Source: Candidatus Bathyarchaeota archaeon (GTDB lineage Archaea; Thermoproteota; Bathyarchaeia; 40CM-2-53-6). From it: a stretch of DNA of 64,000 bases. The stretch is taken from the NCBI GenBank assembly GCA_963833125.1, contig CAWHWX010000005.1:1-64000 (forward strand), in the 5' to 3' direction. The position numbers and the translations under genes were made by a program. The notes beneath the pieces are model-generated. The model was not told where the DNA came from and did not search any database. It was given only the letters and a program-made list of their open reading frames with translations. This document shows, in pieces, positions 38,237 to 49,318 of the stretch. Each line of letters starts with the position of its first letter. Positions within the stretch are counted from its first letter, which is position 1.

Positions 38237-38479
38237 TACCAGTTCCCCCGGGGAAACCTATCTCGTACGGTGCAATAAACTCACGGCAGCAGGGCAATGA
38301 ACTCATACACAAATACCTCGGAACCCGCTTAGAGTTCGTTTCGAAGATCCTAGCCGCCATCCTCATCGCAAAGTAGTCGCGTTGCCCGTTTCTCGCCGCA
38401 AGGGTAACGAGTCTCAGGGTTTCTTTGAGAACCATGGTTTTTAGCGGGTTACTCGTAATATGTGGTTGAGCGGACTGGG

Positions 38480-38698
38480 TTGAAGAAGAAGCGGTTCTTC
38501 GTAGCAATCGACTTCTCCCGGTACAAGGGGAGATACGTGGCGGTGGTCGGAAGGAGGGTCGTTGCTAGCGGAACGAACTGCGAAACAAGTGTGGTTAGAA
38601 GCCAAGAGGAAGAATCCTTCAGCTCGGCCAGAACTTCACAAGGTCCCGAAGGGCGAGACTCTCACGTGGTCCGATCGTACGCCGCAGTAGGGCAATGA
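38480..38698 (+). pseudogene. DUF5678-like small protein, frameshifted/truncated
   Basis: SRYKGRYVAVVGRRVVASG, then in the shifted frame KQVWLEAKRKNP...HKVP. Confidence 0.55.
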
Positions 38699-38728: not shown

Positions 38729-39259
38729 TTACAGTTTTCTGAGGTATTCGAGTATCGTGCGATAGTCATCTTCGCTCAAACGCCAGCCTGCTCTTCGCAT
38801 CTCAGTGAGTTTTCCCACTGCTTCATCTCTTCGCATCTCACCTTCTTGATACATCCTTCCGAGCAGGTAACCAGTCCCGTGACATTCTACCTGCATCAGT
38901 CTAGCAGTGGACCTCGCAGCGTGGTCATCCGCGATCAGGATTCCGTCGAGTTCCTTGGCGATGGCGAGTGCCTCAGCTTCAGCTTTGTGCAGAGGCTTGT
39001 TTTCGCCTTCGACAGCGATCTTCATGAGCCTCTTGACTTCCGAGGCGCTGCGAGGTCGAGTAAGTATGAGCGCGGCTTCTTCAACAAGTTCCCGTATTAC
39101 TGCGACCTCTGGCTTCCCTTGGGCTTCGCCGGCCAAGAGTTCTTCATAGACGCTTTCGGGCAAGAACTTCTTGTTCTGTAACTTCCTTAGAGCTTCCGCC
39201 AGCGAGGCCCTGATTATGTAAATCACTGGAGTTGTGTCGAAGACTAGGGGCTTCGTCAA
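38729..39259 (-). CDS. DUF3368-type PIN-domain protein
   Basis: LVFDTTPVI, PESVYEEL, LHKAEAEALAIA, IADDHAAR, GTGYLL; TTG start at 39259. Confidence 0.85.
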   Translation of the reverse strand: MTKPLVFDTTPVIYIIRASLAEALRKLQNKKFLPESVYEELLAGEAQGKPEVAVIRELVEEAALILTRPRSASEVKRLMKIAVEGENKPLHKAEAEALAIAKELDGILIADDHAARSTARLMQVECHGTGYLLGRMYQEGEMRRDEAVGKLTEMRRAGWRLSEDDYRTILEYLRKL

Positions 39260-39267
39260 ACCGCGCG

Positions 39268-39597
39268 CTACTCTTTCTGTGCTGCCTCGAAGTCTTCGAT
39301 GAATTGCTCCGCCGAATACTGTATTGGTATCCTTCTTTTCTCGAGTTCTTCGAGAAATTCCCAGATGGAGCGGTTGGCGAGACCGGCGGCTTTCAGGGCT
39401 GTGACTCTTCCCGCTTCGTACAGGCTTATCGCTTTCCCAAGTCTCCATTCTCTGATGTACAGGTCGGTTGCGCGGGCTATCACTGAAGACTTGTCGAGCT
39501 TCTCCTCGAGCGCGATCCGCTCGATCTCACGCGCAACCTCCTTTGGTAATCTTGCCGCCACTACCTCCATTAGCCGGCTCTTTGCCAAATCACGCAC
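39268..39597 (-). CDS. UPF0175-family antitoxin
   Basis: RHH-like N-terminus and AISLYEAGRVTALKAAGLANRSIWEFLEEL. Confidence 0.85.
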   Translation of the reverse strand: MRDLAKSRLMEVVAARLPKEVAREIERIALEEKLDKSSVIARATDLYIREWRLGKAISLYEAGRVTALKAAGLANRSIWEFLEELEKRRIPIQYSAEQFIEDFEAAQKE

Positions 39598-39602
39598 CGT
39601 TT

Positions 39603-39619
39603 ACATTAGTTAACTATGT
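39603..39619. promoter_or_regulatory. Palindromic operator upstream of the UPF0175/DUF3368 pair
   Basis: ACAT-TAGTTAACTA-TGT near-perfect dyad next to TTTAAG TATA-like boxes. Confidence 0.45.
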
Positions 39620-39768
39620 TTACAATCATTTAAGGCGTTCGTCCCAATTTAAGCCTCAAACGGAAGAACAAGATAACGATCTACTACGCATGATACAGCG
39701 AGCTCTTAGCTGCGACTAGCTGCAACCCTGAAGATAAGAAATCACGATCAACCAAAGAGATTGATGAT

Positions 39769-39883
39769 TCCTGGTAGGTAAGCTGTAACTTCTAGGTGTT
39801 ACCTGCATCAACTAGTCTTCGCTTGAGGACGACGTTTATAGGACCGCTGCGGACGACGGCCGACCGAACCTACCAAAGGAGGT
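39769..39883 (+). ncRNA. Predicted structured 5' leader of the DIP1984-family gene
   Basis: TGGTAGGT (39772-79) pairs with ACCTACCA (39868-75). Internal hairpins GTAAC/GTTAC and GTCTTC/GAGGAC; GGACGACG twice. The stem abuts the AGGAGGT SD. Confidence 0.55.
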
Positions 39884-39895
39884 ATTGAAAAAGAT

Positions 39896-40384
39896 ATGAA
39901 ATTATTCGAAGCCCTCGCCCTAAAGAAAGCTCTCCAGAACCAGTTAACCCAACTCATCAGCATTAGAAACAGCACATTCGAGTACCCCGAAGACGAGATA
40001 CCTGAATTCAATTTCCAAGAGCTTACTAGTCGAATAAAAGAAAAAGTGAACGAAATTACAGGCTTGAAACTTGCCATCATGCGAGCAAACATGACCAGCA
40101 AACTACCCAACGGATACACACTAAATGAGGCAATCATTGAACTCGCAAATATCAGGTCCGCCGTAGATCAATTTCAGGACCTATTACAAATCGGAAGAAG
40201 CCGCTTCCTCTTCAGCGAAAGGAGACGAAATACCACAGAAATCAAAACAATAAAGCAGGCAGCTCCCGACAAGATCCTAAAGATGATTGAGCAATACGAC
40301 ACCAAACGAATACTCTTCGACGCAATCATCCAAGAAGCAAACCACACAACCGAGATCAACTGGCCACAAAACAGCAAACAATGA
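39896..40384 (+). CDS. DIP1984-family (septicolysin-annotated) helical protein
   Basis: MKLFEALALKKALQ start, IMRAN, TLNEAI, C-terminal DAIIQEANHTTEI match the family pattern; strong SD AGGAGGT. Confidence 0.8.
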   Translation: MKLFEALALKKALQNQLTQLISIRNSTFEYPEDEIPEFNFQELTSRIKEKVNEITGLKLAIMRANMTSKLPNGYTLNEAIIELANIRSAVDQFQDLLQIGRSRFLFSERRRNTTEIKTIKQAAPDKILKMIEQYDTKRILFDAIIQEANHTTEINWPQNSKQ

Positions 40385-40406
40385 AACAATTCCTCCACAG
40401 GCGAAT

Positions 40407-40604
40407 GTGAAGGGGAGATCAGGGAAAGAGCGAGACGAAAGCTGAAAGACCTGCTAACTTGGTACCTAGCGTAGAGGCGCTTGCTTCAAAACTCATCAGA
40501 TCCTCCAACTCAAAGATCAGACGCGTTCAAAGACGCAGATTACAGCTCAAAGATCAACCCAAGGGCTGCAACTCTCGGTCGCTCTGAACCTGACCCCAAA
40601 TCAC
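40407..40604 (+). ncRNA. Predicted ~200-nt structured RNA with internal TCAAAGA repeats, downstream of the DIP1984 gene
   Basis: End-to-end stem GTGA/TCAC, GGGG/CCCC, TCAGG/CCTGA, AGAGCGA/TCGCTCT, CGA/TCG enclosing an A/C-rich loop with TCAAAGA at 40510, 40527 and 40547. Confidence 0.65.
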
Positions 40605-40638
40605 TCAAGAAAAATCGTCCTCTAGTGAATGTAGGCAA

Positions 40639-40944
40639 ATGAAAATCGGGAGTTGGGACATTTACATAGGGTTTCTGTACTCCAGCCTGCCGGCGGATTG
40701 GAAAGGTCTGGAGCTAGATGAAGCATTCAAGCGAGGAAGACCGGTATGGCAGATCATTGGCGTGCACCTCTGGCATGACAGCACCGACGAGGTGAGAATG
40801 TTTGAAATCCACCTGAGTCGGAAAAATGGAGCCCGAGTATCTTACCGTCACCTTCCAGCATTCTGGATTGCGATGACCTGCAAGTGTGACGAATGTAAGC
40901 ATGTAAGAAGGAAGAGGAAATTGAAAACTATGAGGAGCAACTAG
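40639..40944 (+). CDS. Hypothetical protein with C-terminal CxCxxC and basic tail
   Basis: 101-aa ORF with ATG start; no family recognised. Confidence 0.5.
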   Translation: MKIGSWDIYIGFLYSSLPADWKGLELDEAFKRGRPVWQIIGVHLWHDSTDEVRMFEIHLSRKNGARVSYRHLPAFWIAMTCKCDECKHVRRKRKLKTMRSN

Positions 40945-41029
40945 CGAGCGGTTGGCAAGTATCGTTTGAGTGTAACGTCAAGTTAACGGTTGTTAAGAGA
41001 TCCGCCTTGTTTTCTGTTCGGAATTAGGG

Positions 41030-41074
41030 GGGGTGGATCCACCCCTCGAGGGGTGGTGCCAAACGGTGCCAAAC
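41030..41074. repeat. Overlapping perfect palindromes plus a tandem 10-mer
   Basis: GGGGTGGATCCACCCC (41030-45), CCACCCCTCGAGGGGTGG (41039-56), GGTGCCAAAC twice (41055-74). Confidence 0.75.
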
Positions 41075-47664: not shown

Positions 47665-48072
47665 CTAGACTAGCTGCTTGACTTCTTCCGTAACCGCTTG
47701 TCCAAGGTGTCCGTAAACCGCCAGTTTCAGAACCTTCAAACCGAGTAAGGCGCATTTTATTCGTGTCGGGCCGGGGTCAATGCCTAGAAGTTCTAGAACA
47801 TTTGGCTTACCCATTGCTTTGACGTCGTCGAGTGTCTTTCCTTTGGCAACTTCGGTAAGCATAGAGGCTGATGCTTGGCTGATGGCGCATCCTTTTCCTT
47901 TGAAGCGTATGTCATCGATCTTGTTGTCTTTGATTTTGAGTTGCATTTCGATAATGTCTCCACACAGCGGGTTCGAATCCTTTGCCCGCACGTCAGGGTC
48001 GGGTAGGTCGCCGAAGTTGCGCGGGTTCCTGTAGTAGTCTAGGATAATGTCCTTGTAGATGTCAGAACTCAT
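47665..48072 (-). CDS. sufU: SufU/IscU Fe-S scaffold
   Basis: NPRNFG, NPLCGD, GCAISQASAS, RIKCALL. Confidence 0.93.
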   Translation of the reverse strand: MSSDIYKDIILDYYRNPRNFGDLPDPDVRAKDSNPLCGDIIEMQLKIKDNKIDDIRFKGKGCAISQASASMLTEVAKGKTLDDVKAMGKPNVLELLGIDPGPTRIKCALLGLKVLKLAVYGHLGQAVTEEVKQLV

Positions 48073-49318
48073 CGCGCAAATAGCTTCCTGGCTTTCTCGA
48101 GAGCGTCAATGAACACGTCAACCTCTTCCTTGGTGTTGTAAATATAGAAACTTGCCCTTGAAGTGGCTGGCAATTCAAGGAATTCCATCAGGGGCTGAGC
48201 GCAATGGTGACCAGATCTAATGGCTATTCCCTCTTCGTCGAGGATAGAGGCGAGGTCATGCGGGTGAATGTCGCCTAAATTGAATGAAACCACACCGACT
48301 CTGCGCCCCACATCAATCGGCCCATACAAGGTTAGGCCTTCCACCTCCCTCATCCGTTCAAGTGCGTAGCCTGTGATCTCTTTCTCGTGATCATGCACGT
48401 TTCGCATCCCAATTCCTCGGAGATAGTCAACTGCCGCTCCAAGCCCGATGGCTCCTGAGATGTTAGGCGTCCCTGCTTCGAACTTGTAGGGGGGCTCCTT
48501 CCAAGAGGCCTCAGTTGTGTGTACTTCCCGAATCATCTCGCCACCGCCAAGAAATGGTGGCATACTCTCGAGTAACTCCGTCTTTCCATAAAGGCCCCGA
48601 TACCGGTAGGGCCAAGCATCTTGTGACCGGAAAAGGCGGCGAAATCGCAGTCAATATCCCTAACGTCAACCGTCATGTGGGGCACCGATTGAGCGGCATC
48701 AATCAAGAACATCGCGCCGTAACGGTGGGCTACTCGCCCAATCTCATTAACCTGGTTTATCGTCCCGAGCACGTTCGAGGCATGTGTCACGCAGACGATC
48801 TTCGTCTTCTCATCAACAAGTTCGTGAATCTCATCCTGACGGAGTTCTCCTGTCTGATCGATTTTGACAAACTCAATTTTCGCACCCTTCTCTTTGGCCA
48901 GTAATTGCCAAGGGACGATGTTGCTGTGGTGTTCCATGATCGTCAGAACGATCTTATCCCCGGGGCTAATGTTTGCTCGGCCCCAAGAGTACGCTACTAG
49001 GTTAATCGCTTCGGTCGCATTTCGGGTAAAGATAATTTCTTGGGTTCGCTTGGCGTTGACGAACTTCGCAACCTTCTCCCTGGCCTCCTCATGCGCAAGC
49101 GTTGCTTCCTCTGCGAGTTTGTGAATCCCTCGATGGATGTTGGCATTGTATTCTCGATAGTACCTGCCGATTGCGTCAATCACGACGTTCGGTTTCTGAG
49201 AGGTGGCCGCATTATCGAAATAGACGAGTGGTTTGTCGTTGACCTGGCGCTTCAGGACTGGGAAGTCCTCTCGAATCCTTGCCACATTTATCGCACTGAG
49301 CTTTTCAACCAACGCCAT
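48069..49318 (-). CDS. sufS: Cysteine desulfurase SufS (frameshift near 48590)
   Basis: YFDNAATSQKP, EHHSN, SGHKMLGPTGIG, RSGHHCAQP. Confidence 0.95.

Follow-up and report, generated by a model that had tools for sequence, protein, structure and literature searches.

We analysed a 64,000-nucleotide (nt) stretch of Candidatus Bathyarchaeota archaeon contig CAWHWX010000005.1 (GCA_963833125.1, positions 1-64,000), referred to as the window in the rest of the text, in which a DUF6847/DIP1984-type gene is followed by a structured RNA element. The downstream element is a genuine and novel RNA linked to the DUF6847 gene; literature searches found no description of such an RNA beside a DUF6847/DIP1984 gene. 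We observe its conservation, the covariation of its helices, its linkage to the gene, the bulge-helix-bulge (BHB) geometry of its ends and one RNA contig in which these ends are joined back to each other. We consider it fairly probable that a promoter, the DUF6847 gene and an RNA in the 3′ untranslated region (UTR) of the gene make up one unit, in which the archaeal tRNA-splicing endonuclease (EndA) and the ligase RtcB would make a 182-nt RNA circle that enters a protein-RNA particle; the enzymes, the strand of the RNA, its binding by the protein and the function of the module are what we infer. Two features are central to this reading:

39896-40384, + strand: DUF6847/DIP1984-type gene, 162 aa (Pfam PF20935, AlphaFold2 model, fold match to 3kdq)
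40418-40599, + strand: 182-nt RNA, putatively excised and circular (one contig of an RNA run; ends at the limits of conservation)

Conservation, covariation and gene linkage of the downstream RNA

An earlier note, made from the letters of the window, had placed an RNA element of about 200 nt shortly after the stop codon and had described it as closed by a long stem. On the window alone this observation was weak, since both flanks of the gene fold with z-scores of about -1, the element has no Rfam match and it was found only once in the window's own genome. The covariance-model search against Rfam covered positions 39600-40700 at E-values up to 10 and gave no match, a known family in permuted form being able to slip through such a search. 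We gathered 33 homolog loci, of which 29 were metagenomic and 4 came from genomes, and aligned the 350 nt that follow the stop codon. A block of ~186 nt (40412-40597 in the window) was kept in every locus having downstream sequence, and it persisted with proteins just 52-66% identical to that of the window. Similarity stopped abruptly past ...AACCYGACCCC. Mean pairwise nucleotide identity over 276 pairs was nearly equal in the RNA (0.778) and the coding sequence (0.779), and in the 150 nt beyond the RNA identity to the window was 0.45-0.56 in 21 of 23 loci. The two exceptions (L007 and L011, with 0.72-0.80 identity beyond the RNA) both share the next open reading frame (ORF). No conserved reading frame was found within the element itself, the minimum longest open stretch being 11-24 codons. 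The element of the earlier note, which lies 22-27 nt past the stop codon and measures 193-209 nt across the sequences, is real and conserved together with its long closing stem.

To follow the element across loci, we used a covariance model (R1) made from 25 distinct copies. R1 matched in 29 of the 33 homolog loci, always on the gene's strand and directly 3′ of the gene; the four loci that it missed (L035, L036, L038 and L039) are contigs ending within the gene. Matches outside the seed alignment were obtained in L033 (135.8 bits) and L037 (163 bits). Of 401 genomes belonging to the class, 5 contained a 24-nt core pattern of the RNA; four of these 5 also carry the DUF6847 gene, and the fifth has a truncated remnant. 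The gene is itself sporadic, being present in 3 of 60 related genomes. PF20935 was found neither in 300 other genomes of the phylum nor in 200 genomes of the class around the genome of L010, and tblastn of a representative protein (P0076) against plasmids and phages gave no match. Relatives of the protein numbered 62 in a large protein collection, with query coverage of 33-100%, and a profile search returned 182 clusters at E ≤ 0.001, 2 of the 10 clusters looked up bearing Thermoplasmata and Woesearchaeota names.

The structure tested comprised 35 pairs distributed over the central helix, P1 (UCRGG/CCYGA), a two-part P2, P3, P4 and P5, and it was scored on a MAFFT alignment (25 sequences) and on a model-guided alignment (27 sequences), the latter being biased towards the structure used for fitting. 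Among the cells of these pairs, 87.8% (MAFFT) and 89.1% (model-guided) were paired, compared to 32-42% and 29-44% when the partners were slid by 1-3 columns. Likewise, 14 and 18 pairs had changed on both sides (2-10 and 3-8 when slid) and the covariation score reached 0.192 and 0.219 (0.04-0.08 and 0.03-0.07 when slid). None of 500 shuffles equalled the observed percentage paired, double changes or covariation score on either alignment. Inside the closing stem, the following parts were located in the window:

40427-40433, + strand: 5′ strand of P2, AGAGCGA, pairing with 40579-40585; compensatory changes in L031, L032 and L034
40468-40481, + strand: P4 hairpin AGCG-UAGAGG-CGCU, in the most conserved core; stem invariant in 27 of 27 sequences
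40486-40555, + strand: repeat region and P5, with motif copies at 40493-40502, 40510-40518 and 40547-40555 and a variant at 40486-40494
40523-40526 with 40533-40536, + strand: P5 hairpin, between motif copies 2 and 3

All 6 pairs of P5 had changed on both sides, one position being GC in 14, UA in 8 and CG in 4 sequences. The stem of P4, whose consensus is AGCG-URRAGG-CGCU, never varies and thus gives no covariation evidence either way. A scan of all column pairs for a pseudoknot gave no further covarying helix, the GAUC copies being mutually complementary yet invariant. Two further candidates were dropped: a loop-loop pairing between P4 and CUCU, whose variants were not compensatory as judged by eye, and a kink-turn at the P2/P3 internal loop, which fits a single clade only. 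The comparison of homolog flanks thereby bears out a downstream stretch that is conserved, covaries and accompanies the gene.

The earlier note had also seen short repeated motifs in the loops on both sides of the gene. The downstream half of this claim holds, since the motif UCA-N1-3-G-N-UC occurs with a mean of 4.0 copies per element across the 27 sequences versus 0.07 in mononucleotide shuffles (L010 has zero copies under the strict pattern). In the upstream flank, the supposed repeat is GGACGACG occurring twice, on either side of a TATA-like box.

Several observations temper this picture of a conserved RNA. The downstream element alone folds no better than shuffles (z = -0.98). The 27 sequences represent few clades, many of them from related metagenomes, so that the covariation counts overstate the number of independent events. 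Pair counts do not settle the strand either, with 89.1% of cells paired on the + strand and 89.6% on the - strand, and the comparison of G-U with A-C counts as a strand test gave no decision. The fixed place of the element after the gene, its lack of a promoter of its own and its GAAA-type loops point to the + strand.

Bulge-helix-bulge motif and the probable circular form of the RNA

What the earlier note had taken for an end-to-end stem closing the downstream RNA has the geometry of a BHB splice motif, formed by the two ends of the element:

40407-40423, + strand: BHB 5′ half, with outer GUGA (40407-40410), unpaired A40411, central GGGG (40412-40415), bulge AGA (40416-40418) and inner UCAGG (40419-40423)
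40589-40604, + strand: BHB 3′ half, with inner CCUGA (40589-40593), central CCCC (40594-40597), bulge AAA (40598-40600) and outer UCAC (40601-40604)

The motif is already present in the minimum-energy and centroid folds of the window sequence. Its core, consisting of a 4-bp central helix, a 3-nt 5′ bulge and the inner helix, was found in 26 of 27 aligned sequences, and the core of L010 was recovered by hand when the 5′ half was taken 16 nt further upstream. The central helix GGGG/CCCC is paired in 95% of cells, with AGGG/CCCU variants, and the inner helix in 98%, with a covarying change from UCAGG/CCUGA to UCGGG/CCCGA. The outer helix covaries as well (GUGA/UCAC in the window versus GUGU/ACAC in L010). 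Each of the 27 sequences has a 5′ bulge of 3 nt, whereas a 3′ bulge can be defined only together with the outer helix, that is in the window, L007, L010, L032, L034 and L037. The sequence of L032 provides a textbook BHB motif, AGGA AGGG (AUA) UCGGG ... CCCGA CCCU (AAA) UCCU, with the bulges in parentheses. PMC4090602 describes pre-tRNAs in which the central helix, containing the first two bases of the anticodon, comes before the bulge on the 5′ strand, and the geometry seen in the window agrees with that description.

Small shares of the stretch were present in 20 public sequencing runs, of which we compared one peat metatranscriptome (X10) with three DNA runs (X1, X2 and X4). A 157-nt contig of X10 (contig 9, depth 3.4, one letter differing from the window) aligns with its first 54 letters to 40546-40599 and with the remainder to 40418-40520. 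The contig thus runs from 40599 back by 182 to 40418, with four letters (ATCA) at the joint that fit either side. This joint was not seen in X1, X2 and X4, whose contigs continue into the flanks. Cuts after the second base of each bulge (AG/A and AA/A, the slash marking the cut) predict exactly the 40599-40418 junction and a circle of 182 nt. Neither the coding sequence nor the flanks were covered in X10, which we did not count as evidence, and the contigs carry no strand information.

PMC12558985 and PMC7714728 describe a route to circular RNAs in archaea, in which EndA cleaves the transcript at a BHB motif and the excised piece is afterwards closed by a ligase. By the same route, the RNA would be co-transcribed with the DUF6847 gene and its ends would pair into the BHB motif; EndA would cut after the second base of each 3-nt bulge, and a ligase, probably RtcB, would close the excised 182 nt (40418-40599) into a circle. 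The window's own genome codes for two EndA-domain (tRNA_int_endo) proteins and one RtcB, the two endonuclease-domain genes being consistent with an α2-β2 type of enzyme. Lenient α2-β2 splicing endonucleases accept relaxed BHB forms, as PMC4090602 describes them. The tRNA introns of the genome were not used as a control because the intron mode of ARAGORN flagged 27 of 31 tRNAs and its boundaries were unreliable; some of the tRNA introns reported in this mode are implausibly long (genome G000).

Some points speak against a BHB-made circle. In the largest clade (group 2, for example L021 and L025), pairing of the outer helix is weak or cannot be made out and the motif is at best a relaxed BHB form, and in the window one unpaired A lies opposite the 3′ bulge. 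The junction of the circle comes from a single contig of low depth (3.4) in a single run, and template switching by reverse transcriptase at the 4-nt ATCA microhomology could yield the same joint. The RNA might then be linear in the cell, the back-joined contig being a library artefact and the closing stem serving to protect or define linear ends. We regard such a linear RNA as unlikely, while giving it real weight on account of the single contig, its depth and its microhomology: the joint coincides with the cuts expected from the BHB geometry (after the second base of each bulge) and with the limits of conservation, and a de Bruijn assembler, by our reasoning, cannot join sequences across just four shared letters. 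A BHB-made circular form of the RNA is likely.

BHB introns outside tRNA and rRNA are known from just two mRNAs according to PMC7714728, namely cbf5 of Crenarchaeota and HVO_1309 of Haloferax volcanii, the latter with a 46-nt intron in its 5′ UTR. As in the downstream RNA, the BHB motif of these mRNAs lies in the transcript of a protein gene and the excised piece was recovered as a circle (PMC7714728). In contrast to them, the element described here lies in a 3′ UTR, measures 182 nt, has a conserved fold and repeats and always stands alongside one protein family, whereas the account in PMC7714728 reports no function for the cbf5 and HVO_1309 pieces. The C/D box small RNA within the tRNA-Trp intron offers another parallel, since it is a functional non-coding RNA that is freed by BHB cleavage and works with proteins (PMC4090602), although here the host is an mRNA, there are no C/D boxes and the candidate partner protein is encoded next door. 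Circular omega RNAs made beside tnpB of IS200/IS605 elements likewise are structured RNAs at the 3′ end of the partner gene that form circles in archaea; in the description of PMC12558985 they differ by having no BHB motif and by partnering with TnpB, an RNA-guided nuclease. The DUF6847 module also contains neither a transposase nor a guide-like segment.

The DUF6847 protein as candidate partner of the RNA

The 162-aa ORF of the earlier note, at 39896-40384 (+ strand), was confirmed, and its product matched Pfam DUF6847 (PF20935) with 52.4 bits against a cut-off of 27, residues 11-154 covering profile positions 2-141 of 141. It narrowly missed NCBIfam DIP1984_fam (NF038048; 65.4 bits, curated cut-off 70), so that by sequence it appears as a relative just outside that subfamily model. 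A sequence search of the PDB gave a single weak match, to 3kdq (E = 0.022), the crystal structure of a DIP1984-family protein of Corynebacterium diphtheriae from 2009 with no recorded function or RNA partner. An AlphaFold2 model built from a 24-sequence alignment (predicted local distance difference test, pLDDT, 82.1; predicted template-modelling score, pTM, 0.68) shows four long helices, with residues 106-119 forming a loop that is disordered and rich in Arg. Foldseek returned 3kdq as the sole structural match (TMq 0.73-0.74, TMt 0.77-0.78), all other matches having E > 0.5. The DUF6847 protein and 3kdq thus share both sequence family and fold, with template-modelling (TM) scores of 0.73-0.78. 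In searches of the literature for "DIP1984", "DUF6847" and "septicolysin", only "septicolysin" occurs among the matches listed, as a gene annotation label, and this label on the family is misleading.

Prediction of four copies of the protein gave a score of 0.68 compared to 0.17 for the best of three controls, in line with the oligomer that the earlier note had proposed. Among proteins of solved structure, 20 of 30 pairs attained the mark applied to this score, compared to 1 of 23 single chains. Agreement of contacts between runs was at least 79% and partner pLDDT at least 80, with two predicted interfaces, one on helices 1 and 4 and the other on helices 2 and 3. The protein is therefore predicted to form a homo-oligomer.

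In the particle that we propose, the RNA would fold into a P1-P2-P3 stem opening onto the invariant hairpin, the covarying hairpin and about four UCA..G.UC copies. The DUF6847 protein, as a predicted homo-oligomer, may bind the single-stranded repeats and the invariant hairpin, and protein and RNA would together form a stable circular-RNA/protein particle. We infer this binding from the obligate linkage of gene and RNA and from the conserved single-stranded repeats, and some features of the protein argue for caution. The oligomer prediction may echo 3kdq, which was itself solved with four chains. The window's clade has a conserved RRR within the disordered loop, and yet the Arg-rich loop is not kept family-wide: among 58 diverse members compared, only N65 and N149 are invariant. 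That the DUF6847 protein binds the RNA is a proposal drawn from sequence.

A reading with no protein partnership would make the element a cis-acting or selfish BHB intron of the 3′ UTR, which would be spliced out so as to stabilise or end the message, or would simply be tolerated. Its position in the 3′ UTR, with no promoter of its own, would suit such an intron, and UTR introns with BHB motifs do exist, as in the 5′ UTR of HVO_1309 (PMC7714728). However, a passive intron needs its BHB motif only, whereas this element is as conserved as the coding sequence and keeps long single-stranded stretches and an invariant hairpin across proteins that are 52-91% identical. It was also never found apart from the gene, bar one truncated remnant. 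We thus judge an intron with no protein partner to be quite unlikely and retain the protein-RNA particle as the preferred reading.

Promoter, mobility and possible roles of the module

The earlier note had further proposed a structured leader upstream of the gene, closed by an 8-bp perfect stem, through which the protein might regulate its own expression. The upstream flank contains the following features:

39772-39779 (TGGTAGGT) with 39868-39875 (ACCTACCA): 8-bp perfect stem, present in the window
39785-39802, + strand: palindrome GTAAC-N8-GTTAC, upstream of the TATA-like box
39825-39841, + strand: purine-rich block resembling a B recognition element (BRE), GAGGACGACG, and TATA-like box TTTATAG, the presumed archaeal promoter of the module
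39878-39883, + strand: Shine-Dalgarno-like GGAGGT, 13-18 nt ahead of the ATG

The 8-bp stem exists as described, and it is perfect in the window only. In 8 relatives 66% of the cells were paired, and the percentage paired over all tested upstream pairs (stem and hairpin) was equalled by 56 of 500 shuffles and was not above controls. The 127-nt upstream stretch folds no better than shuffles (z = -1.01, 36 of 200 shuffles as good). The BRE/TATA-like block, on the other hand, is found 47-62 nt ahead of the start codon in nearly all homolog loci, where a GGAGG-type Shine-Dalgarno sequence also follows it; the equivalent block of the largest clade is GAATGAAG TTTAATAG. Archaeal transcription generally starts ~25 nt after the TATA box, which would put the start of the module near 39860-39866. 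Since the 5′ arm of the stem (39772-39779) lies upstream of this conserved block, it should be outside the transcript. We therefore rejected the structured leader, whose stem is not conserved in relatives and whose 5′ arm lies upstream of the presumed promoter, and autoregulation through such a leader finds no support. The palindrome at 39785-39802 was kept in 7 of 8 relatives with a compensating change at 0 of 5 pairs, and it is probably a DNA operator, not an RNA hairpin.

The stretch singled out by the earlier note (39769-40604) coincides almost exactly with a module of ~840 bp, which in our reading would be a compact two-part unit made of the promoter, the DUF6847 gene and the RNA in the 3′ untranslated region of the gene. 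Contigs from several metagenomes cease to match the window at its left edge (39768-39776) and its right edge (40604-40620), the edges being those of the module. The neighbours of the module vary and include PIN pairs, terminase fragments and, in one clade, an unnamed 255-aa ORF. In L007 the DUF6847 protein is 91% identical to that of the window, whereas the upstream UPF0175 gene is just 27% identical. Decayed copies were also encountered. A DNA contig in X2 lacks 39951-40489, the break falling between two copies of a 10-nt direct repeat, and genome G021 retains a remnant (L042 1427-1541, - strand) that covers model positions 45-162, the 3′ two-thirds of the RNA, with no DUF6847 gene. The divergence points of the contigs, the variable neighbours, the mismatch in L007 and the decayed copies lead us to regard the stretch as a portable accessory module. 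It is single-copy over 1.1 kb in the window's own genome, which rules out a repeat or transposon copy. No relative of the DUF6847 protein was found in viral contigs, and one viral-contig match to the core pattern was a chance match inside an ORF (15 bits). Two features of the window bear on the surroundings and decay of the module:

38729-39597, - strand: overlapping gene pair of a UPF0175 antitoxin and a PIN-domain protein that also has DUF3368 (239 aa as called), both matching PADLOC candidate PDC-S70
39951-39960 and 40490-40499: 10-nt direct repeat AACTCATCAG, bounding the natural deletion in X2, by which most of the gene is lost together with the 5′ part of the RNA

The PIN/UPF0175 pair is the toxin-antitoxin neighbour named by the earlier note, which had also placed the gene in an accessory patch, and the module does sit in variable patches with toxin-antitoxin genes. 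A cluster of sugar-nucleotide and glycosyltransferase genes lies further upstream of this pair. The ~255-aa ORF, which has no Pfam match, is conserved upstream of the module in the largest clade (L016 1115-1882, L026 2033-2800, L030 1081-1848 and L021 796-1575), at ~200 nt from it in L026, L030 and L021 and farther away in L016, with two ORFs between. Pieces of terminase large subunits lie 1-2 kb downstream of the module in L007 (5146-6486, - strand) and L008 (4500-5384, - strand), which suggests proviral or island surroundings in these two loci; for the window, the Pfam matches of the ORFs scanned (26-56 kb) included no terminase. The RNA remnant of L042 abuts a small DUF5678-like ORF that resembles window positions 38462-38698. 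After the RNA, the window carries a 101-aa ORF (40639-40944, + strand) with no Pfam or NCBIfam match, which is 75% identical to its counterpart in L007 and has a start region that aligns with L011; other clades lack this ORF behind the RNA, and it could form a third, optional component of the module. Elsewhere in the window, a G+C-rich near-perfect palindrome (GGGGTGGATCCACCCC, then GAGGGGTGGTGCC) occupies 41028-41061 in a gene-poor stretch, and a class-V aminotransferase (cysteine desulfurase-like) gene at 48069-49318 (- strand) is broken into two overlapping ORFs (164 and 261 aa) by a frameshift or an assembly error.

The location of the module no more than hints at a role in genetic conflict or defence. 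The corresponding explanation, in which gene and RNA form a type III-like toxin-antitoxin or defence pair and the RNA neutralises the DUF6847 protein or is sensed by it, draws on the adjacency of the gene to an RNA with repeated motifs, on its sporadic distribution (3 of 60 relatives, 0 of 300 other genomes of the phylum), on the PIN toxin-antitoxin pairs or terminase fragments that are often neighbours and on the existence of decayed copies. ToxIN and TRAP do resemble the module in combining an oligomeric protein, here a predicted one, with an RNA that displays short repeats. In ToxIN-type systems, however, a tandem repeat RNA array lies upstream of an endoribonuclease toxin gene, whereas the RNA described here lies downstream as a single structured unit with about four repeats, not many, and the protein has another fold. 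Neither a nuclease signature nor a nuclease-like fold match was found in the DUF6847 protein, whose fold matches 3kdq only, and PADLOC returned weak PtuB matches to it (E = 0.004-0.007) and no defence-system match. The analogies to TRAP and to type III toxin-antitoxin RNAs drawn in the earlier note thus fail on fold and on the layout of gene and RNA, and we hold a toxin-antitoxin or defence pair of this type to be rather improbable. That the repeats act as DNA, with a DUF6847 protein binding them as operator or centromere-like sites, is very improbable in spite of their GATC-bearing palindromic cores and the neutral strand statistics, since compensatory changes uphold four helices that DNA sites do not need and an RNA library contained the element in permuted form.

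More broadly, and with less confidence than for the module itself, we tentatively propose that DUF6847/DIP1984 is a family of RNA-binding proteins, each with a dedicated RNA. In these archaea the RNA would be a 3′-UTR circle made by the tRNA-splicing machinery, giving the first dedicated protein/circular-RNA particle to be described in prokaryotes, carried by a portable 840-bp module that may act in genetic conflict. If true, the dedicated RNA partner would provide the first testable biochemical handle on the orphan DUF6847/DIP1984 family. It would also represent a new kind of BHB substrate, in which the splicing machinery makes a functional circular RNA from a message. The 182-nt RNA is under selection as strong as that on the protein, whereas the known BHB pieces of mRNAs have no function in the account cited above. 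Being small and self-contained, the module is open to simple experiments.

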